Assembly (NCBI GenBank): GCA_036648855.1
Contig: JAVWCU010000003.1
Span: 1-46,152 of the forward strand
Direction of reading: 5' to 3'
Origin: Bacilli bacterium
GTDB taxonomy: Bacteria; Bacillota_I; Bacilli_A; RF39; UBA660
DNA: 46,152 nt
Of the stretch, positions 2,964 to 41,742 are shown in pieces (positions within the stretch are counted from its first letter, which is position 1; every line of letters begins with the position of its first letter). The notes beneath the pieces were generated by a model. It was given only the letters and a program-made list of their open reading frames with translations. It ran no database searches and was not told the DNA's origin. Made by a program: the position numbers and the translations under genes.

Positions 2964-3383
2964 ATGGAACCGTTAAAAACTTCCTACTGTGGGTCAACAT
3001 TTATTATTGATCTAAATAAACAAAAAATTCTTTTGATTTATCATAAGAAATTTCAAAATTGGATTCAACCAGGTGGGCATTTAAAAGAGGGAGAATCTCC
3101 AGAAGAAGGAGCTATTCGTCAAGCCTATGAAGAAACTGGTGTAAGAGTAAAATTAGTATATCAGAAACCTTTTATGGTAGAAGAATACAATAATTTTGCC
3201 GGTAATATTATTGATTATCAATATGTAGCAGTCCCAGTTACAGATAATCAAACCCTCGTAAATAGCGAGGAAAGTTTTACTTTAGACTGGTTTAGTTTAG
3301 AAGAACTGGAACATATTCCAGTATTTCCCGATGTTAAAACTAAAGCTAAGATATTTTTAACACCAGGGTTTCATACTGAATAA
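2964..3383 (+). CDS. NUDIX hydrolase
   Basis: 139 aa with a NUDIX box GGHLKEGESPEEGAIRQAYEETGV (GX5EX7REUXEEXGU). Confidence 0.85.
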   Translation: MEPLKTSYCGSTFIIDLNKQKILLIYHKKFQNWIQPGGHLKEGESPEEGAIRQAYEETGVRVKLVYQKPFMVEEYNNFAGNIIDYQYVAVPVTDNQTLVNSEESFTLDWFSLEELEHIPVFPDVKTKAKIFLTPGFHTE

Positions 3384-3483: not shown

Positions 3484-4671
3484 ATGAAAAAAACAATTAG
3501 AGATTATAATCTTGAAAATAAGAAAGTGCTAATTAGATGTGATTTTAATGTGCCTCTGTCAAATGGCCAAATAACTGATGACAATAGAATAAAAGAGAGT
3601 CTTCCAACAATTAAATTTGCTATTGATCATCAAGCTAAAACTATTTTGTTATCTCATTTAGGTAGGGTTAAAGAAGAATCAGATTTAGCTAAAAACAATT
3701 TAGCTCCTATTGCAGACAGGTTAAGTAAATTATTATTACACCCCGTTATATTTTGCAATAAAACTAGAGGTATAGAACTAGAAAATGCTATTAATCTTAT
3801 GAATCCAGGGGATGTCCTTCTAATTCAAAATACTAGGTATGAAGATTTACATGATCAAAAAGAAAGTACTAATAATAAAGATTTAGCTAAGTATTGGGCT
3901 AGTCTTGGTGATATATTTATAAATGATGCTTTTGGTACTATTCATAGAAGTCATGCCTCTAATGTTGGAATAGGGGAGCTGTTACCAAATGGTATTGGAT
4001 TTTTAATTGAGAAAGAACTGAAGGCCCTAGAAGTTCTTAATCATCCTACTAGTCCTTTTATAGTTTTACTAGGTGGGGCTAAAGTAGCAGATAAAATAGG
4101 AGTTATAGAAAATTTCATCAAGAAAGCAGACAGTATAATTATTGGAGGAGGAATGGCCTTTACCTTTTTAAAAGCTAAGGGTTATGAAATAGGAAAGTCA
4201 TTAGTAGACCCTCAGAATATTGCCTTCGCTAAAGAAATGCTAGATCGTTATCCTAATAAAATAGTTCTACCTGTTGATGTTAATGTAACAACCGAGTTTA
4301 GTAATACTACCCCTAACCGCATTGCCTCTGTTAAGGAAATTAGCCCGACTGAAATGGGTATGGACTTAGGGCCAAATTCTATTCGTCATATTAAAACAAT
4401 TTTAACTGGTGCCAAATTAGTCTTATGGAATGGACCTTTAGGTGTATATGAAATGGATAAATATCAGTATGCTACTAAGGAAATACTAGAGTATTTAGCG
4501 AGTACCTCTACTTACACTGTTTTAGGTGGTGGAGACATAGTTGCCTCAGCAGGAGAATTAGGATATAAAGATAAGGTAAGTCATGCCTCAACCGGGGGAG
4601 GAGCAACACTAGAATACTTAGAAGGTAAAATTCTACCAGGGTTATCCATTATTAATGAAAGAGTAGAATAA
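3484..4671 (+). CDS. pgk: Phosphoglycerate kinase
   Basis: 395 aa. Has RCDFNVP, the NDAFGTIHRSHAS motif and C-terminal STGGGATLEYLEGK. AAGGAG RBS. TGnTATAAT extended -10 at 3440-3448. Confidence 0.97.
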   Translation: MKKTIRDYNLENKKVLIRCDFNVPLSNGQITDDNRIKESLPTIKFAIDHQAKTILLSHLGRVKEESDLAKNNLAPIADRLSKLLLHPVIFCNKTRGIELENAINLMNPGDVLLIQNTRYEDLHDQKESTNNKDLAKYWASLGDIFINDAFGTIHRSHASNVGIGELLPNGIGFLIEKELKALEVLNHPTSPFIVLLGGAKVADKIGVIENFIKKADSIIIGGGMAFTFLKAKGYEIGKSLVDPQNIAFAKEMLDRYPNKIVLPVDVNVTTEFSNTTPNRIASVKEISPTEMGMDLGPNSIRHIKTILTGAKLVLWNGPLGVYEMDKYQYATKEILEYLASTSTYTVLGGGDIVASAGELGYKDKVSHASTGGGATLEYLEGKILPGLSIINERVE

Positions 4672-4672
4672 T

Positions 4673-5149
4673 ATGCTTAGACTAGTATTAGCAACAAAAA
4701 AAGCTGATTTAGTAACTAATAATATTACGGATTTTACCTGTTCATTCTACGATAAACAAAATATTTTAGAGGCCTTAAGTAAATGTGAAAAAGCTATTGA
4801 AAGTGGGATTTACATAAGAAAGTGTTTATTTTTAGTTGAAAATAGTACTATTAAAATTGGTTGCTATTTAGATGCTGCTACAGATATTAAGTTTTGTACC
4901 TTAAATATTATTCAAGAAGAGGCAGAATATACTGAAGTTAATCAAATGCTAAAATTGGCTACCACTTATAGTCTAGATAATTTAATGATGGAAACAGTTT
5001 GTTTTCAAGCTCCAAAGGATAATAAAATATATTTAAATGCAGCCTTAGAAAATAATTTTTTGTTAGATGATTTAGAAGATAATCATACAGAAACAGTTTG
5101 CTATTTAAAAGACAGAACTTTAACTAATGCCAAAAACTCAATTAGATAG
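4673..5149 (+). CDS. Hypothetical protein (158 aa), translationally coupled to pgk
   Basis: The ATG lies 1 nt after the pgk stop. I recognise no motif. Coding status is inferred from length and tight packing. Confidence 0.55.
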   Translation: MLRLVLATKKADLVTNNITDFTCSFYDKQNILEALSKCEKAIESGIYIRKCLFLVENSTIKIGCYLDAATDIKFCTLNIIQEEAEYTEVNQMLKLATTYSLDNLMMETVCFQAPKDNKIYLNAALENNFLLDDLEDNHTETVCYLKDRTLTNAKNSIR

Positions 5150-5160
5150 GTGGATAAGAT

Positions 5161-6165
5161 ATGAAAAACATGAAAAAAAACGGAATTATATTAGGACTAA
5201 TAACCTTGGTAGTACTTTATTTTGTTTTAAAAGATAATTTTGCAGCAATTACTAGAGAGCTATTTAATAGTAATCCTTTGTGGATTATTGTATCTTTTTT
5301 AATAATTATATTATATTGCTTTTTTCAATCGCTAGCTATTCATGAAATTATTAAAAATTATGAACCAAAGTATAAATATAAAAAAAGTTTACAGTTATCT
5401 CTAATTACCAATTTCTTTAATGGAATCACTCCTTTTTCAACAGGAGGACAACCAATGCAGATTTATCTGCTTAAAAAGGATGGAATAAGAGTTACAAATG
5501 GTACTAATATAATTATTCAAAATTTCATTCTTTATCAACTAGCACTTGTTATATATGGCATAATATCCTTGTTTTTAAACTATCAATTTCACATTTTTGA
5601 AAATTTACCTGTTTTAGGTGGTATAATATTAATAGGATTCGCTATCAACACCTTAATCATGGTGGGACTTTTCATTATCAGTTTTGGTAAAAGATTAAAT
5701 AAATTTTTAGTTAAAATTGGTTTGAAAGTCCTAACAAAATTTAAACTGGTTAATAATACTGATAAACTTCATGATGAATGGAATGAAAGATGTGAGACAT
5801 TTCACAGTGGAGCAGTCTCACTAATAAAAAACTATAAAGTTTGTATTAAAGGTTTTATTTATCAGTTTTTAGGATTAACCTGCCTCTATATTTTACCTCT
5901 ATTTGTGTTTTATGCTTTAGGCAGTAAAAATATAAGTGCAATTGAGGCTATAACTTCATCAGCTTATGTCATGATTATTGGGTCTTTTGTTCCAATTCCA
6001 GGGGCAAGTGGAGGCATAGAATATGGATTCTTAAGATTTTTCGGGACTTTTATTAAAGATAGTGTATTATCCGCAGGATTACTTTTATGGAGATTTATTT
6101 CTTACTATTTATTAATGATAGTGGGAGGTATTGTTCTAAGCTTTAGAAAGGACATGGATAAATAA
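5161..6165 (+). CDS. Polytopic membrane protein, lysyl-phosphatidylglycerol-synthase-TM / flippase-like family
   Basis: 334 aa with about 8 hydrophobic segments and an FFNGITPFSTGGQPMQ-type motif typical of the LPG_synthase_TM (TIGR00374) family as I recall it. AGGTGGA RBS. Confidence 0.6.
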   Translation: MKNMKKNGIILGLITLVVLYFVLKDNFAAITRELFNSNPLWIIVSFLIIILYCFFQSLAIHEIIKNYEPKYKYKKSLQLSLITNFFNGITPFSTGGQPMQIYLLKKDGIRVTNGTNIIIQNFILYQLALVIYGIISLFLNYQFHIFENLPVLGGIILIGFAINTLIMVGLFIISFGKRLNKFLVKIGLKVLTKFKLVNNTDKLHDEWNERCETFHSGAVSLIKNYKVCIKGFIYQFLGLTCLYILPLFVFYALGSKNISAIEAITSSAYVMIIGSFVPIPGASGGIEYGFLRFFGTFIKDSVLSAGLLLWRFISYYLLMIVGGIVLSFRKDMDK

Positions 6166-7394
6166 TGAGAATAGGAATATTTACAGATACATATACCCCA
6201 TATATTAGTGGCCTAGTTACTAGTGAACTAATGTTAAAGCAAGCACTAGAAAAAAAAGGACATGTGGTATATGTAGTAACAGCTAATTTAGAAAATTTTA
6301 AATATGATTTTGATGAAGATGATAAAGTAATTAGAGTTCCAGGTATTCCTACTGGTATATATGATGCCAGATTAACAGGTATTTATCCGATTCAAGCTGT
6401 TAACAAAATTAAAAGTTGGCACCTAGATGTAATACATTCTCAATCAGAATTTGGCGTAGGAACATTTGCTAGAATTATTGCTAAACAGTTTAATATTCCT
6501 ATAGTACACACCTATCACACTATGTATGAAGATTATATTCACTATATAACCCACGGTCATTTTGATAAATCTAGTAAAAAACTAGTCGAATATTTAACCT
6601 TGTTTTATTGTGATAAAACTATTACAGAGTTAATTGTTCCTACTAAAAAAGCTTATGATTTATTTAAAGAAAAATATAATGTCCAAAGAAATATCCACAT
6701 CGTACCTACTGGTATTGAAACAGAAAGATTTTATGCAGAAAACATTCCGAGGAAAGATATAGTAGCAATCAAAAAGAAGTATAATATAACATCTAAAGAC
6801 TTTGTTTTTGTTTTTGTTGGTAGACTAGCTGAAGAAAAGAATATAGAATTTTTACTTGATATAACTAAAGATTTAGTTAAGGACTATCCTAATATGAAAT
6901 TATTAATTATTGGGGATGGACCAGATAAAGAAAAATATGAGGGAATTGTCTCTGCTAATCATAATGAAAACAATGTTATCTTTACTGGTAAAGTTCCGTG
7001 GGATACGGTACCTATCTATTACCAAGTAGCAGATATATTTATTACTGCATCCACTACCGAGACTCAAGGCTTAACTGTAATTGAGGCAATGGCGGGGAGT
7101 TTACCAGTTGTATGTATAGATGATGAAAGTTTTAGGAATGTAGTTATAGATGGTTTAAATGGAGAACTATTTAATAATAAAGAAGAAGCTAAAGCAAAGA
7201 TAATCAATTTATATCTTCATCCAGATGATAAAAAACAAATGGGTAAACAAGCTAGAATAAATGCAGATCGTTATAGTTCTAAATATTTTGCAGAAGCCGT
7301 TTTAGATGTTTACGAGATGGCTATTGATTCTAAGAAAAAAAGCAGGAACATTGTCATTAAGTTATGGGACAAAGTAAGGGGGAAAGACAAATGA
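6165..7394 (+). CDS. GT4-family glycosyltransferase (diacylglycerol glycolipid synthase-like)
   Basis: 409 aa. N-terminus MRIGIFTDTYTPYISG. GT-B EX7E-like region TETQGLTVIEAMAGSLPVV. The start overlaps the upstream stop (ATAATG). Confidence 0.8.
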   Translation: MRIGIFTDTYTPYISGLVTSELMLKQALEKKGHVVYVVTANLENFKYDFDEDDKVIRVPGIPTGIYDARLTGIYPIQAVNKIKSWHLDVIHSQSEFGVGTFARIIAKQFNIPIVHTYHTMYEDYIHYITHGHFDKSSKKLVEYLTLFYCDKTITELIVPTKKAYDLFKEKYNVQRNIHIVPTGIETERFYAENIPRKDIVAIKKKYNITSKDFVFVFVGRLAEEKNIEFLLDITKDLVKDYPNMKLLIIGDGPDKEKYEGIVSANHNENNVIFTGKVPWDTVPIYYQVADIFITASTTETQGLTVIEAMAGSLPVVCIDDESFRNVVIDGLNGELFNNKEEAKAKIINLYLHPDDKKQMGKQARINADRYSSKYFAEAVLDVYEMAIDSKKKSRNIVIKLWDKVRGKDK

Positions 7395-8294: not shown

Positions 8295-9068
8295 ATGCAA
8301 AAAGTTAAAGTTCTAATGATCGACGATAATGTTGATTTAGTAACTATGATCGAGGAGTACTTCAATAATCACGCTACTATTGAGCTAGCATTATCAGCCC
8401 ATAATGGCGAAGAAGGTATGCAGTTAATTGAGTCAAGGCAAAAAGACTATGATGTAATTATTTTAGATCTTATTATGCCTAAAAAAGATGGACTAGATGT
8501 TTTAGAGGAAATGAGAAGTAAAAACTTATCTAAAAAAATAATTGTTTTAACTTCATATAATGCTCCAGAGATGATTCGTAAAGTATCAGAGTTTGGAGTC
8601 AATTTCTTTATTTTAAAACCATTTGAATTATCAGAATTAGAAAAAAGAATAAATGATTGTGTCACAGATACAAAGTTTAGTAATAAAAATATAGATGTTT
8701 ATCACAATAACTTACAAATATCAGTTACTAAAATACTCCATGAACTAGGAGTACCCTCTCACATTAAAGGTTATCAGTATATTAGAGAAGGAATAGGAAT
8801 TCTCTATGAAAGACCTGATGTAGTGGGAGGCATAACTAAAGAACTATATCCCGAGTTAGCCAAGAAATTTGATACGACAGTATCCAGAGTAGAAAGAGCA
8901 ATTAGACATGCCATCGAGGTTAGCTGGAATCGTGGTAACTGGCAACTAATGGAAGATATTTTTGGACACAGTGTTGATATAGATAAGGCTAAGCCAACCA
9001 ATTCAGAATTTATTGTAACAGTTGCAGATAAATTACGACTAGAATTTCATAAGGTTGGTAGCAAATAG
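8295..9068 (+). CDS. spo0A: Sporulation master response regulator Spo0A
   Basis: 257 aa. Receiver domain ([16 protein letters not shown]). The C-terminal effector domain is near-identical to the Spo0A signature: [48 protein letters not shown]. Confidence 0.97.
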
Positions 9069-34116: not shown

Positions 34117-34542
34117 ATGGCAAAAGAAAATAAAAATATTTATACCGGAACTGGTAGAAGAAAAACTAGTGTTGCTAGAGTACGTTTAGTATCAGGCACT
34201 GGTAAGATTACCGTAAATGGTCAAGATGTTCATGAATACTTTCCATATGAAACCCTAGTTATGGATTTATCTCAACCACTTGTTGCTACTAATACAAAGG
34301 AAATATTTGATGTAGAAGTAAGCGTACAAGGTGGAGGATTTTCTGGTCAAGCTGGAGCAATTCGTTTAGGAATTACTAGAGCTTTATTAGATTACGATTC
34401 AGCGACACCAAGTGATTCTGAAAATAATTTTAGAATAGTATTAAAACCAGCTGGTTTTATTACACGTGATGCCCGCAAAAAAGAACGTAAGAAACCAGGA
34501 CTTAAAAAAGCCCGTAAAGCACCTCAATTCTCAAAACGTTAA
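34117..34542 (+). CDS. rpsI: 30S ribosomal protein S9
   Basis: 141 aa with [12 protein letters not shown] and the C-terminus PQFSKR. Confidence 0.96.
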
Positions 34543-34555
34543 TCAATTGGATATC

Positions 34556-34589
34556 AAACTTTGGAATTTATTCCAGAGTTTTTCTTTTG
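34556..34589 (+). terminator. rpsI terminator (copy 1)
   Basis: AAACTTTGGA / TCCAGAGTTT 10-bp stem (one G-U pair) with a 6-nt loop, followed by a T-rich tail. Confidence 0.7.
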
Positions 34590-34595
34590 TCTTTA

Positions 34596-34604
34596 TGATA
34601 TAAT
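34596..34604 (+). promoter_or_regulatory. Extended -10 promoter element (copy 1), now driving the cassette gene
   Basis: TGaTATAAT. Confidence 0.5.
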
Positions 34605-34638
34605 ATAAATAAGATTTAAGAGTAAGAGGAACTGTTAT

Positions 34639-34668
34639 ATGAAAGAAAAAATTCATTTAAAACGGTAA
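34639..34668 (+). pseudogene. Duplicated 5' fragment of the 35943 gene, leaving a 9-codon ORF (MKEKIHLKR)
   Basis: The RBS and ATGAAAGAAAAAATT are identical to 35943-35957. The sequence then diverges and stops. Confidence 0.6.
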
Positions 34669-34689
34669 AATAATATAAGAGGTGATACA

Positions 34690-35625
34690 GTGGAATTAAC
34701 AGAAGAAGTAAAAGAATATATCAATGCTTTATTATCTAAATCAGAAGAAGCATATTTAATGGCATTAGAAATAATAAACAAACCCACAATTAATTACAGG
34801 TCAGAAGGATTTTGTTTTTTTATATGTAACTCTTGGGAGTTGTTGCTTAAAGCATTTTTAATACGAAAAAACAATGATATAAACTTCATTAACTTTAAGG
34901 ATGATACAAATAGAACTATAGGATTAGATGAATGTGTAGAAAAGGTTTTTACAAGTACAACTGATAAAACTAAAATTAATATATCTTATATTCGTAGCAT
35001 AAGGAATAAGGCAACTCATTTAATAATTCCAGATTATGATTTTCTGTTGGCATCAGCATATCAAAGATGCATTACTAATTTTAATAAATTTTTTGAAAAC
35101 CAATTTCCTGAATACAATTTAAACAAGAAAGTTACTCCTTTTGTTGCTTTGACAAATCCTGGTAATTTGGAAAAATCTTCGTTAGTGCTGAATCCAGCTA
35201 ATATCTTCGTTTATGAAAAATTAATGAGTGAATTAAATATGGATGAAAGTATAACTCAAACATTAAGATTAATTTCAACAAAAAAAACTTCAGAAGCAGA
35301 TATAACATACGCCATCGATAAAAATGCAACAGTCGGAGCAACATTTATAGATGTACCAAAAGATATTGATAAAACGCATCCATTTACTACAAAAGAGGTT
35401 GTTAGTAAAATTTGTGAAACATTGTCACTAACCATTGGAGTAAATCACGGTTTCACTAACAATAAATTTCACGATATATGTAAAAGAAAAAATGTAAAAT
35501 TGAATCAAGAATATTGTTATCAGTTTCCATATTCAAAGAGTATAATATATAAATATAGCGAGTTAGCAATTGAATATATATGTTCAGTTTACATCAATGA
35601 AAAAGAAAAAAGTAATAAAAATTAA
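34690..35625 (+). CDS. HEPN-motif protein, DUF3644-like (candidate RNase toxin or defence protein)
   Basis: 311 aa with a GTG start after an AAGAGGTGA RBS. The N-terminal LALEIINKPTINYRSEGFCFFICNSWELLLKAFL resembles DUF3644 as I recall it. Rx4H motif RNKATH at nt 35002-35019. Confidence 0.6.
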   Translation: MELTEEVKEYINALLSKSEEAYLMALEIINKPTINYRSEGFCFFICNSWELLLKAFLIRKNNDINFINFKDDTNRTIGLDECVEKVFTSTTDKTKINISYIRSIRNKATHLIIPDYDFLLASAYQRCITNFNKFFENQFPEYNLNKKVTPFVALTNPGNLEKSSLVLNPANIFVYEKLMSELNMDESITQTLRLISTKKTSEADITYAIDKNATVGATFIDVPKDIDKTHPFTTKEVVSKICETLSLTIGVNHGFTNNKFHDICKRKNVKLNQEYCYQFPYSKSIIYKYSELAIEYICSVYINEKEKSNKN

Positions 35626-35646
35626 TTTTTGTGATATAATATATTT

Positions 35647-35746
35647 GTAGACAGGTGCTCGTGATGGAATAACGATGTGTTGGCTAAGCCAGTAAGCATA
35701 CGAAAGTATGTGAGAATTCATCTCGCCAGGGGCACCTGTTTTTTTA
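35647..35746 (+). ncRNA. Candidate ~95-nt structured RNA (three-way junction plus U-tract)
   Basis: TGaTATAAT at 35632-35640. Closing helix ACAGGTGC (35651-58) / GCACCTGT (35732-39), extended by CG-GATG / CATC-CG. Inner hairpins are TGGC-TAA-GCCA and GCATAC-GAAA-GTATGT (GNRA loop). Followed by T7. It could instead be only an elaborate terminator. Confidence 0.35.
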
Positions 35747-35827
35747 TTAAAGGAATGTGTTAGAGTGTGTTTGCGTGCCGACAGGTAGCTAACAAAAAGG
35801 TTCTAATCCCAATGTTTATAATAGATA

Positions 35828-35957
35828 TCAATTCTTAAAGAGTTAATCTATTGGATATCAAACTTTGGAATTTATTCCAGAGTTTTTCTTTTGTCTTTAT
35901 GATATAATATAAATAAGATTTAAGAGTAAGAGGAACTGTTATATGAAAGAAAAAATT
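35828..35957 (+). repeat. Direct repeat, copy 2
   Basis: See copy 1. Contains the second copies of the terminator (35860-35893) and the TGaTATAAT element (35900-35908). Confidence 0.9.
35860..35893 (+). terminator. Duplicated rpsI-type terminator (copy 2)
   Basis: Identical to 34556-34589. Confidence 0.65.
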
Positions 35958-37667
35958 AAAAATATTTTTAAAGGAGATAGTCTTTGCTACATAATACTAT
36001 TTTTAGTTAGTTGTTTTTTACTATACTCATATGCACTTAATTTAGGGACTTTATCAAATGGTCAAGATACTCTGTTTCATGCTTCTAATATTAGTGTTAT
36101 TGAATCTACTTTAGATTTTTCTCGATTTAAGTTTTTACCCAGCCCTATTTTACCCAATATAGCTAATAATTTAGGATATGGTATTGGTTTATTTTATCCC
36201 AGATTGCCTCATATTATAGGGGCCTATATTACACATCTAGTAATGCCTTTTGGTGGAAGTGTTACTACTGGTATAAAATTAACACATTTACTATTAGTCT
36301 TTTTCTCTGCCCTATTTATGTATAAATTTAGTAAAAAAGTTTTTAAAAACTCAAAATCAGCTTTTTTCTCGGCCTTATTTTATATAACTTCTAGCTATTT
36401 TATATCGGATATATTGTATAGAGATGCTTTTGCAGAATCTTTTCAGTTTTTATTTTTACCTATTATTATGATAGGACTATATGAATTGTTCTATGGCAAA
36501 AGAAGTAATTTCTATTTTTATTTTATTATAGGCTATGTAGGAATGATTAATTCTCACGTAGTTCTTAGTATTTTCTTGACCTTAGCTTTTATTATCTATC
36601 TACTATTTCATTTATCGGAAATATTCAAAAAAAATAAATTAAAGCCTCTAGTATACGCGGCTATTACTATTTTAATTTTGACTCTTCCTGAGCTTATCCC
36701 TCTTCTTGAACATAAACTATTTGCCTCACTTGCTGTTTTTAGTAATAACCTAATATCATCTTCAGGACTAGTTTCAGCTTGTGCAATTAGCCCGTTTGCT
36801 TATTTATTTCCTTTTTATGAAGGAACTATGATACAGTTTTTTATTAATATTGCTGTTATAATTTTATTAATAATTGTTATTAATAAAAGAAAGCAAATAT
36901 TTAAAACTAAAGCACAAGTTAAATTGCTAACAACCTTTTTAACAATAGGAATAATTTTCTTGCTTTTAACAACCAGATTAACTCCTTGGCAATATGCTCC
37001 GGATTTTCTACTTATGATTCAGTTCCCTTGGCGTTTAGAAATAGTTGTTATTTTCGTTACTTCTTTTTTAGCAGCCACTTATTTTTTATTACCAAATATT
37101 AAGCATTCTAAAACAAAGGAAATAATGCTTATTGTGATAGCCTTATTCTTTGCTTATATAGCCTCTGTTCCCCAAACTACTAGGGATTTTGTTATTGAAC
37201 CAAATTTAGAAAATGTGTTTATTTCAGAATATGGGATGGGCTGGTCAAAAGAGTATTTACCTGAGACAACATTAAAAAATGCGGGATATTATTTATATCA
37301 AGAAAATAAAGTGATAAGTAAAAATAGTGAAGAGATAGAAGTACTGGACTATGTTAATAATATTCCAAATATGTCTTTTAGCCTAAATATTATGTCCAAA
37401 ACTACTATTGAAGTACCACGACTTTATTATCTAGGCTATAACATCAAGTTCAAAGACTCTACTAATACATCTATAAATATTCCCTATAGAGAAAGCAAAC
37501 AGGGTATGATTGAGCTGGATATACCATCATCTGGGACCATTAGTATTACTTACCCAGGTACTAAGTCTAAACAAATATCAAATATTATTAGAACAATATT
37601 TTTACTTGTTTTAATAAGCTGGTTATTATTTTTATCTAAAAAAAGGTGCTTAGAAATCGACAAATAA
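35943..37667 (+). CDS. Large polytopic membrane protein, GT-C/YfhO-like glycosyltransferase candidate
   Basis: 574 aa with more than 10 hydrophobic segments, an N-terminal GQDTLFHASNI motif and a C-terminal soluble domain plus a final TM segment. Confidence 0.5.
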   Translation: MKEKIKNIFKGDSLCYIILFLVSCFLLYSYALNLGTLSNGQDTLFHASNISVIESTLDFSRFKFLPSPILPNIANNLGYGIGLFYPRLPHIIGAYITHLVMPFGGSVTTGIKLTHLLLVFFSALFMYKFSKKVFKNSKSAFFSALFYITSSYFISDILYRDAFAESFQFLFLPIIMIGLYELFYGKRSNFYFYFIIGYVGMINSHVVLSIFLTLAFIIYLLFHLSEIFKKNKLKPLVYAAITILILTLPELIPLLEHKLFASLAVFSNNLISSSGLVSACAISPFAYLFPFYEGTMIQFFINIAVIILLIIVINKRKQIFKTKAQVKLLTTFLTIGIIFLLLTTRLTPWQYAPDFLLMIQFPWRLEIVVIFVTSFLAATYFLLPNIKHSKTKEIMLIVIALFFAYIASVPQTTRDFVIEPNLENVFISEYGMGWSKEYLPETTLKNAGYYLYQENKVISKNSEEIEVLDYVNNIPNMSFSLNIMSKTTIEVPRLYYLGYNIKFKDSTNTSINIPYRESKQGMIELDIPSSGTISITYPGTKSKQISNIIRTIFLLVLISWLLFLSKKRCLEIDK

Positions 37668-40679: not shown

Positions 40680-40779
40680 TTAATCATCTCCTTCTATGAC
40701 CGATTATAACATATTTTTTCATAAGTTTTTCATATATTTTCCATAATTTCTATGCTATAATTTATACTAGGTGAGAAAT

Positions 40780-41742
40780 ATGGGATATAAAAATGATAAG
40801 AAGTTTAAAACATTAGATGAACAAATAGAGATATTAAAATATAAAGGCATGACTATTAACAATGAGGAATATGCTAGAGAAATACTTCTGAGAGAAAATT
40901 ATTTCTTTTTAAATGGTTATAGACACCTTTTTATAAAGTCAGAAACAGATAAAAAATTTTTGCCCGGTGTAACATTTGAAGAACTATATAGTTTATTTTT
41001 ATTTGATAGACAATTTAGAAATATTATTTTTAAGAATCTACTGATTATTGAGAACAATATTAAGTCTATCATTTCCTATCAACTATCTAAAAAATATGGA
41101 TATAAAGAAAATGATTATTTAAAACCTAAAAATTTTACTGAAGATCCTACTAAATCTAGGCAAGTTAATGATTTGATTAAAAAAATGAAAAGGCAAGTCC
41201 GAATCAATGGCGGGCAACATTCAGCAACAATGCATTATATTAATAATTATGGCTATATTCCTATGTGGATAATGGTTAAAGTATTATCCTTTGGAATAGT
41301 AGGAGAAATGTTTTCTATTCTGAAGAAAGAAGATCAGGAATCGATAACATCTATATATCAGTCAGATGTAAATAGTTTTGTTGACTATTTACCTATTCTA
41401 GCTAATTACCGTAATTTATGTGCTCATGAAGATATTTTATATGAAAATAAAACCCAAAAATCTATAGATGATACAGTAATTCATATGATGTTAGGGATTG
41501 ATAAAATAGATGGAGAGTATATTTATGGAAAAAATGATCTCTTTGCTTTATTAATTATAATGAATCAATTTTTAACTACGGATGAATTTAAAAACTTAAT
41601 AGAGGAAATAGACCATACTCTAATAAATTTAGAATACAATTTAAAAACCATTCCACTAGCTAAAGTCCTAGATAGAATGGGATTCCCAGAAAACTGGAAA
41701 GATATAAAAACAATAAGAAAGAAGGTAGACTATGAGAAGTAA
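40780..41742 (+). CDS. Abortive-infection protein, AbiD/AbiF (Abi_2) family, HEPN type
   Basis: N-terminal EQIEILKYKGMTI...ILLRENYFFLNGYRHLF. Rx4H motif RNLCAH at nt 41410-41427. ATG at 40780 after AGGTGA (the ORF-track GTG is at 40771). TGcTATAAT at 40753-40761. Confidence 0.8.
   Translation: MGYKNDKKFKTLDEQIEILKYKGMTINNEEYAREILLRENYFFLNGYRHLFIKSETDKKFLPGVTFEELYSLFLFDRQFRNIIFKNLLIIENNIKSIISYQLSKKYGYKENDYLKPKNFTEDPTKSRQVNDLIKKMKRQVRINGGQHSATMHYINNYGYIPMWIMVKVLSFGIVGEMFSILKKEDQESITSIYQSDVNSFVDYLPILANYRNLCAHEDILYENKTQKSIDDTVIHMMLGIDKIDGEYIYGKNDLFALLIIMNQFLTTDEFKNLIEEIDHTLINLEYNLKTIPLAKVLDRMGFPENWKDIKTIRKKVDYEK

Follow-up and report, generated by a model that had tools for sequence, protein, structure and literature searches.

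We analyzed a 46,152-nt stretch of DNA (the window) from a Bacilli bacterium of the RF39 lineage (assembly GCA_036648855.1, contig JAVWCU010000003.1). In the window, a 1304-bp unit lies directly downstream of rpsI, the gene encoding ribosomal protein S9, and is bracketed by a direct repeat of 130 nt. The cassette between the repeats carries the gene of a HEPN-domain protein and the gene of a structured RNA, which together are called the module here. The features of the locus are as follows.

34117-34542, + strand: rpsI (ribosomal protein S9; Pfam Ribosomal_S9, E 7.5e-47), the target gene
34524-34653, + strand: left repeat copy, with the genuine rpsI end, a terminator-like hairpin, TGATATAAT, a ribosome binding site (RBS) and codons 1-5 of the membrane-protein gene
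34639-34668, + strand: relic open reading frame (ORF) of 9 codons, MKEKIHLKR-stop, which continues out of the left repeat copy
34690-35625, + strand: cassette gene encoding a 311-aa protein, with a GTG start, AGAGGTG in front of it, and Pfam and PADLOC matches
35628-35643, + strand: promoter-like element of the RNA, TTTGTGATATAATATA, with an extended -10 sequence, TGATATAAT, at 35632-35640
35644-35750, + strand: non-coding RNA gene of about 100 nt, folding as a three-way junction (closing stem, two inner stems and two hairpins) and ending in a U-run
35751-35827, + strand: right arm of the element, from the RNA terminator to the repeat, the last ~25 nt of which (..TGTTTATAATAGATAT) are conserved across species
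35828-35957, + strand: right repeat copy, opening with the relic CAATTCTTAAAGAGTTAA (QFLKS-stop, 35829-35846), followed by the terminator, promoter, RBS and start region of the membrane-protein gene
35943-37667, + strand: host membrane-protein gene (574 aa), whose orthologues stand directly after rpsI in loci L049-L052

The two repeat copies, 34524-34653 and 35828-35957, aligned without gaps over 130 nt at an offset of 1304 nt and were identical at 126/130 positions (BLAST E 8e-62). The mismatches were located at 34532, 34536, 34537 and 34545, so that the remaining 108 nt (34546-34653 and 35850-35957) showed no difference. All four fall within the first 22 nt of the repeat, an arrangement with a chance probability of ~6-8e-4. 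The repeat covers the last six codons of rpsI (QFSKR-stop, 34525-34542), a terminator-like hairpin at 34556-34581 followed by a T run, and a promoter-like TGATATAAT at 34596-34604, the latter two predicted from consensus matches. It closes with an RBS and the start of the membrane-protein gene (ATG AAA GAA AAA ATT). The right copy probably provides the working terminator, promoter, RBS and start region of this gene.

An earlier first-pass annotation of this DNA had described a gapless 130-bp repeat at an offset of 1304 bp, with 108 identical inner bp and four mismatches confined to the 22 nt overlapping rpsI. The alignment and the mismatch positions bore this out. The content it had listed for the block (rpsI end, terminator, promoter, RBS and the codons MKEKI) was likewise recovered, with the terminator and promoter standing as consensus matches, and both of its relics, the 9-codon ORF on the left and QFLKS-stop on the right, could be read in the sequence. 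In addition, the 3' part of the relic ORF (34649-34668, AAATTCATTTAAAACGGTAA) forms a third rpsI-end-like sequence, positioned right at the left cassette junction (34653/34654). Its alignment score against the rpsI core was 22, and about five other sites in 92 kb (both strands) scored as high; this is a post hoc observation.

The closest relatives of the membrane protein were 57% and 44% identical. They share the gene order of ABC/ECF genes, truA, rplM, rpsI, membrane protein, amidase, SpoIID and phospholipase C. In the two related species (L049/L050/L051 and L052), the membrane-protein gene begins 152 or 99 nt downstream of rpsI; the cassette was absent and the intergenic region was present in a single copy. 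This identifies the 1304-bp unit as an insertion, and the conserved order suggests that the membrane-protein gene was the original downstream neighbor of rpsI. Alignment with the empty sites showed that the left repeat copy is host sequence throughout. The last 18 nt of rpsI, CAATTCTCAAAACGTTAA (34525-34542), resemble an attachment-site (att) core and have identical DNA in the left copy and in the empty sites of L049 and L052. The first-pass annotation had suggested searching for empty sites, which L049-L052 now provide, and had stated that the mobile-cassette interpretation fails if relatives never have an empty site and the duplication is fixed across the lineage with unvarying cargo; empty sites exist, and the cargo varies.

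A second HEPN-type abortive-infection gene was found 5 kb downstream, at 40771-41742 on the + strand (Pfam Abi_2, E 3e-40). An Abi_2-matching gene occupies the equivalent position in L049 and L052, which suggests a gene fixed in the chromosome and not cargo acquired recently.

The cassette and its two repeats are also present in a second assembly, GCA_036660115.1 (locus L001), which showed 99.56% identity to the window (55 alignment columns differ over 12.4 kb). An independent Logan contig (L002) extends from rpsI across the left repeat and into the beginning of the cassette. Both assemblies are probably metagenome-derived, where repeats are prone to error, and a collapsed or mis-joined repeat could in principle have produced the structure. 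Because two assemblies that differ at 55 columns share the structure, one strain difference (34545) lies inside the left repeat only, and a third contig crosses the left junction, we consider an assembly artefact extremely improbable.

The fourth mismatch, 34545 (A versus T, 3 nt past the rpsI stop), is a strain polymorphism, since the second assembly has T in both copies. In that strain, the two copies show no difference from 34538 (immediately ahead of the stop codon) to the repeat end, and their three mismatches all lie in the last rpsI codons. Divergence between the two strains was ~0.4% and was equal for the cassette and its flanks. This indicates that the cassette is older than the strain split and has evolved vertically since. 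Within the cassette gene, the strain differences (five single-nucleotide polymorphisms and a 3-nt indel) all fall within 35490-35602, the last ~45 codons, and the gene is otherwise identical. A look-up of the exact cassette protein found no other contig.

The cassette protein matched two Pfam families above their curated cut-offs, DUF3644 in its N-terminal part (E 3.7e-39) and EC042_2821 in its C-terminal part (E 6.3e-10), which is the architecture of EC042_2821-type HEPN proteins, and the PADLOC profile PDC-S19 matched over residues 9-306 (E 1e-64). DUF3644 is a HEPN domain (PMC3710099). The HEPN motif Rx4H was found as R105-N-K-A-T-H110, and R105, N106, K107, T109 and H110 were invariant among 25 homologues. 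The top Foldseek matches of the AlphaFold model (pLDDT 72) in the Protein Data Bank were HEPN toxins. The C-terminal EC042_2821 domain contains many invariant acidic and Lys residues in the homologue alignment; Foldseek with the full-length model returned no restriction-endonuclease (REase) structure for this domain. Based on these matches, the protein is likely a toxin-type RNase that joins a HEPN-RNase domain to a REase-fold domain. DUF3644 proteins with other C-terminal domains have been reported as defence proteins, namely HEC-08 (bioRxiv 10.1101/2024.01.29.577857) and Ishtar (bioRxiv 10.64898/2026.07.06.735840). The closest relatives of the window protein were those of L056, L060 and L041 (72-79% identity), and that of L047 was 68% identical over a partial match.

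The first-pass annotation had recognized the protein gene and had overlooked the second gene of the cassette, a conserved structured RNA. The match to the RNA model begins 19 nt past the stop codon of the protein gene, and a TGnTATAAT-type element stands at the equivalent place in the homologous loci compared (TATACT in a few). The fold has a z-score of -4.65. Our covariance model, R1, scored the window RNA at 113 bits and found one copy only in the window. Among 24 diverse RNA sequences, compensatory changes were observed in 21 of 27 pairs, and 98% of the alignment cells were paired, compared with 34-46% when the partners were slid, in an alignment that is model-fitted and somewhat favours structure. 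In 31 distinct sequences the RNA is conserved together with its promoter, and its core hardly varies.

Rfam 15 gave no gathering-level match in the window and nothing relevant at E values up to 10 in 34400-36100, and we therefore rejected a signal recognition particle RNA and a hammerhead-like three-way junction as identities of the RNA. ARAGORN found no tRNA or tmRNA in the window. A stretch of the right arm, GACAGGTAGCT (35777-35790), is nearly the same as the 5' closing-stem sequence found in the RNA (GACAGGTGCT, 35650-35662), and the right arm of L056 has AGGTAGCTA at a similar place. The likeness may be a coincidence or a protein-binding motif.

We searched loci that encode a homologue of at least 28% identity and that retain downstream DNA. 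In every such locus the RNA adjoins the protein gene, and R1 found exactly one RNA copy per locus (39/39 loci). It was also present beside the homologue in 6/6 phages and satellites tested, comprising the Streptococcus satellites Javan495 and Javan9, Staphylococcus phage S-CoN_Ph25, Listeria phage LP-HM00113468, Flavonifractor phage Chenonceau and Corynebacterium phage Poushou. For homologues of 28-54% identity, 10 loci were checked, from Defluviitaleaceae and other metagenome-assembled genomes or metagenome contigs and from the six phages and satellites. The RNA again stands immediately downstream of the protein gene, and in 9/10 it is encoded on the opposite strand. In L066 alone, the HEPN gene (670-1602) and the RNA (3193-3299) are separated, and both are kept; an IS110-family-like transposase, identified by eye and with split ORFs, lies between them at 1729-2916 on the - strand.

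In the window, the RNA follows the protein gene on the same strand, 19 nt past its stop codon, and ends in a U-run. These properties would also fit a mere cis-acting terminator or 3' untranslated region of a solitary defence gene. The opposite orientation in 9/10 distant homologue loci, with sequence and structure kept, indicates that the RNA is a separate gene. A TGnTATAAT promoter of its own precedes the RNA, the conservation of its unpaired nucleotides far exceeds the needs of a terminator, and the IS110-type insertion in L066 split the gene from the RNA with neither being lost. We therefore regard the terminator explanation as very improbable.

R1 found no RNA match next to the actinobacterial or Legionella plasmid homologues (22-33% identity, or truncated), and the linkage is thus shown down to ~28% protein identity. 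Protein homologues were abundant in gut genomes labelled 'uncultured Bacilli' and 'Acholeplasma sp. CAG:878', carriers that we take to be RF39-like. A scan of metagenome contigs from JGI yielded 10 loci, of which 0 were at rpsI, and scanning IMG/VR with a pattern of the RNA core gave no match.

Pairs of a HEPN toxin and a neighboring RNA have been described before. In C. difficile, the HEPN toxin AbiF is controlled by the neighboring RNA RCd22 (PMC12373285), and in Lactococcus the HEPN toxin AbiV1 is neutralized by the neighboring RNA abiV2 (bioRxiv 10.1101/2024.05.05.592566). The window pair resembles both in placing a HEPN protein with an Rx4-6H motif beside a conserved structured RNA on mobile or prophage DNA, and abortive infection or addiction would be the expected outcome. 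It differs in the HEPN family, which is DUF3644/EC042_2821 with a C-terminal REase-fold domain, and in the RNA, which is unrelated, has no Rfam match (including the abiF motif) and lies downstream in either orientation. By analogy, the HEPN domain would be an RNase toxin kept inactive by its partner RNA. The RNA would bind the toxin and hold it in check, as in AbiF/RCd22 and AbiV, and the pair would act as an abortive-infection defence and an addiction module on the prophage or element that carries it. The conserved linkage of an RNA gene to a toxin gene that marks type III-like systems is seen here in the 39/39 loci, the 6/6 phages and satellites and the covariation. In the light of Rfam 15 and the searched literature, this RNA-protein pair appears to be new.

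The module is located directly after rpsI in five lineages, the window and L041, L047, L056 and L060, and S9 still ends in QFSKR-stop in the latter four. Locus L060 contains a tandem array (3827-7173), in which rpsI is followed by an Abi_alpha gene and a gene for a 253-aa protein, a relic (CAATTCACAAAGAGATAG), the module, and a 24-nt perfect copy of the rpsI end. The internal relic carries a terminator homologous to that after rpsI and divides the Abi_alpha cassette from the module, whose unit is ~1.33 kb. The L060 repeat begins at the same Gln codon as that of the window, and ~25 nt of element DNA ahead of the relics (TGTTTATAATAGATAT) are conserved in the window and at both L060 relics. In L060, differing cargo cassettes share one arm-plus-core site, loosely like an integron array. 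The 253-aa protein and a 254-aa module neighbor in L003 were unrelated to each other.

In the gene orders of phages and satellites, the position of the right arm is taken by the integrase gene. The arm motifs GTAkGACAC and GTAGCAC are repeated and resemble arm-type recombinase sites, as an observation only. Arms were shared between the rpsI-sited copies only, with no module-borne terminal sequences common to all sites. The recurrent site, the shared repeat edge, the conserved arm and the core-like sequence at the left junction suggest site-specific recombination at the rpsI end. Integration at the 3' end of rpsI and integrase-less cis-mobilizable elements (CIMEs) have both been described for Bacillota (PMC5090054, PMC5704250).

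A CIME is a decayed integrative and conjugative element or integrative and mobilizable element (IME) that keeps attL and attR, and tandem accretion is part of the concept (PMC5704250). The window unit has att-type direct repeats at a site used recurrently by integrative elements, lacks integrase and transfer genes among its family-supported ORFs, and has a counterpart of tandem accretion in L060. It differs from a CIME in that its left arm is replaced by host sequence, and both its descent from a larger element and its mobilization in trans are conjectural. The cassette between the repeats (34654-35827) contained no recombinase or relaxase, its sole family-supported ORF being the HEPN/REase gene, in a scan that did not cover short unannotated ORFs; no cognate integrase was found in the 46-kb window.

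On balance, we think it reasonably probable that the 1304-bp unit is a horizontally acquired, CIME-like mini-island without an integrase, trans-mobilized or decayed, at an rpsI attachment site, with a single protein-RNA module as its cargo, and that its repeat arose by flank capture and Campbell-type re-integration. The family scan agrees with the first-pass annotation that the cassette lacks an integrase or transposase, and the recurrent rpsI site, the L060 array and the conserved arm support its suggestion of a trans-mobilized or decayed mini-island at the 3' end of an essential gene. Its further suggestion of a new kind of cassette capture is not needed, as the style of integration is of an already known kind.

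The clustering of mismatches bears on how the repeat arose. At a divergence of up to 1%, the occurrence of three mismatches within 19 nt has p ~9e-4. If the duplication has the young age suggested by 0-1 mismatches in 111 nt, the three changes in the relic are unlikely to have arisen in place. The relic codons AAG AGT resemble the AAG AGR (Lys-Arg) of L047 and of the internal relic of L060, unlike the host AAA CGT. Together with the clustering, this suggests that the relic arrived with the element and that the 111 nt on the left are host DNA.

A sequence of three steps would account for this structure. An element would first enter by site-specific recombination at the core of the rpsI end (CAATTYTCAAAR...TAA), using a recombinase encoded elsewhere or since lost and bringing its own decayed copy of the rpsI end. 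An aberrant excision would then pick up 111 nt of host flank and lose the left arm of the element. Finally, the circle would re-integrate by a Campbell-type crossover within the captured flank. This would leave the genuine rpsI end on the left, the foreign relic on the right and 111 identical nt after both. Specialized transducing phages such as lambda dgal and dbio arise by aberrant excision of this type, which is then followed by homologous Campbell integration. A route of this kind would explain the host flank on the element, the loss of one arm and the long perfect repeats. Capture and re-integration would be the simplest route, and mobilization would presumably have been in trans.

Without any site-specific system, a single illegitimate or template-switch insertion could have duplicated the intergenic region, or the module could have inserted into a pre-existing tandem duplication, with the mismatches arising by later decay of the relic. 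In its favour, both repeat copies are made up of host DNA, no integrase is present, and short repeats of promoter-like or terminator-like sequence surround the module in L030 and L004. Uniform decay since a recent duplication clashes with three mismatches in 19 nt beside 0-1 in 111 nt. The presence of the module at rpsI in five lineages, the repeat edge at the same codon in the window and L060, the conserved element arms beside the relics and the core-like sequence at the left junction all speak for a specific site, and we judge this explanation unlikely.

Other kinds of mobile DNA were rejected. In the case of a transposon or insertion sequence with its target-site duplication, there is no transposase, there are no terminal inverted repeats, and the repeats of 16-171 nt differ between sites; the first-pass annotation had already argued that the repeat is not a transposase target-site duplication, and these observations agree. 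An integron gene cassette does not fit neighbors that are rpsI and a membrane-protein gene, a site that mimics the rpsI end and the lack of an integron integrase (attC sites were not searched for explicitly). An IME of the IMESag-rpsI type would have its own tyrosine integrase and a relaxase or origin of transfer (oriT), and 34654-35827 has none of these. IMESag-rpsI elements are 9.1-9.5 kb long and carry a tyrosine integrase, a relaxase and replication genes (PMC5090054, PMC5704250). The window element resembles them in its integration at the 3' end of rpsI with S9 left intact and in carrying a toxin-antitoxin-type module, and a MobV relaxase occurs in small elements at loci related to the window module. 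It differs in its size of 1.2 kb and in having no integrase, relaxase or replication genes. At 130 nt, of which 111 nt are captured host flank, its repeat exceeds the length that we would expect of an att core. As far as the searched literature shows, a long captured-flank repeat of this kind appears to be new.

We then examined the module in other mobile elements. Homology between modules starts at the promoter of the protein gene and stops at the RNA terminator. In L016, L065, L033, L012 and L018, a large serine recombinase and a MobV relaxase are followed by the module, and in L016 (54-4332), L033 (1798-6065) and L065 (4787-9064) these three parts make up minimal mobilizable elements. Ahead of the module, L016, L065 and several other loci have ~130 nt of non-coding DNA that contains an inverted repeat (ACACACTTGCAAATTGACA...TTAGTGTGT) and may be an oriT. 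Homologues were found in 46 phage or satellite records, and the six records inspected all place the homologue within the lysogeny region, at a distance of 0.2-1.7 kb to the integrase gene. The hosts of these phages and satellites include Streptococcus (S. pyogenes, S. pneumoniae and S. agalactiae), Staphylococcus, Listeria, Flavonifractor and Corynebacterium. Judged from these gene orders, integrated mobile elements carry the protein-RNA pair as a standard accessory module, in the small mobilizable elements of gut RF39-like Bacilli as well as in temperate phages and phage satellites.

Many copies of the module are located just past tRNA or tmRNA genes, with relics of tRNA 3' ends beyond the RNA, an example being L015, whose 1.44-kb unit has an imperfect repeat of 31 nt. 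Recurrent flanking repeats, 16-171 nt long, duplicate sequence of the insertion site (3' ends of tRNAs or genes, or terminator-like and promoter-like sequences). In L023, a 171-nt repeat with 85% identity (4754-4924 and 8383-8553) copies the 3' end of a probable MobV-type relaxase gene, recognized by its motif by eye and without a Pfam Mob_Pre match, and brackets the module together with a gltX-like gene; this locus may represent the accretion of two elements. A T-box-leader-like sequence (AAGGTGGTACCACG) and a gltX-like tRNA-synthetase gene follow the module in L005 (~6100-6400) and also in L012, L020, L023, L027 and L033, and L024 has a class I lysyl-tRNA-synthetase-like gene (by eye) inside its repeat-bounded segment. 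These neighbors may mark a plain insertion site or a tie to tRNA-directed HEPN activity. A small protein of 89-141 aa, similar by eye, recurs in L005 (4209-4490), L016 (5697-5978), L026 (2853-3122) and L024 (4424-4849), with the motif ...L.K.L..IC.F....P....G.IRKI...NL.YIEP; the L024 copy was scanned and had no Pfam match.

The protein and RNA could themselves form an integrase-independent mobile element, in which an RNA-assisted nuclease would integrate the ~1.2-kb gene pair where highly expressed genes end (3' ends of rpsI, tRNA, tmRNA and greA), the repeats being a by-product. If true, this would account for module-only cassettes at several different sites. Insertions of the module alone, with target-derived repeats of 16-130 nt and no recombinase gene, occur in the window, L030, L004, L015 and the L060 unit, and the nuclease fold of the protein and the constant presence of the RNA would fit as well. 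However, the RNA core is nearly invariant across target sites, which is unlike a guide, and the pair rides as cargo beside a normal integrase in phages, satellites and mobilizable elements. No module-borne terminal sequences are common to all sites, homology ending at the RNA terminator and the promoter, and the HEPN domain suggests RNA cleavage. Self-mobility of the pair is accordingly a very doubtful explanation.

Several observations count against the mini-island interpretation. The duplication of 111 nt of host DNA goes beyond ordinary site-specific integration, so that an extra step is needed. No rpsI-specific recombinase was found in the window or in any rpsI-sited locus, and L056 has the module after rpsI with no detectable repeat. 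No excised circle or donor form was seen, and no same-species genome without the cassette was found. The module-only insertions of ~1.2-1.4 kb between repeats in several lineages (window, L004, L015, L030 and the L060 module unit) are somewhat unexpected under random decay. With respect to the protein, residues 148-219 of the structure model have low confidence, and the REase catalytic residues were not pinpointed. The parallel with type III toxin-antitoxin systems is also incomplete. In ToxIN, the antitoxin is an upstream tandem-repeat array that is processed by a toxin of the ToxN fold. The window pair is alike in combining a protein endoribonuclease, here predicted, with an RNA partner encoded beside it. 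In contrast, its RNA is a single, non-repetitive three-way junction located downstream, its putative toxin is of the HEPN type, and a repeat search of the cassette found no tandem array.

Under the mini-island interpretation, the rpsI-site islands without an integrase would extend to gut RF39-like Bacilli and to an extreme form of 1.2 kb, and the locus would exemplify the capture of host flank into a repeat. For the protein family, the linkage to an RNA suggests that PDC-S19 (DUF3644/EC042_2821 HEPN-REase), a candidate single-gene defence, is a two-component system with an RNA partner outside Rfam, and tests of the protein without the RNA may mislead. The pair provides a new candidate RNA-antitoxin/HEPN system for study. 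A role in addiction or defence would explain why the module is the last surviving part of the island, and it offers an explanation for the persistence of such modules as the last remnant of decayed mobile elements.

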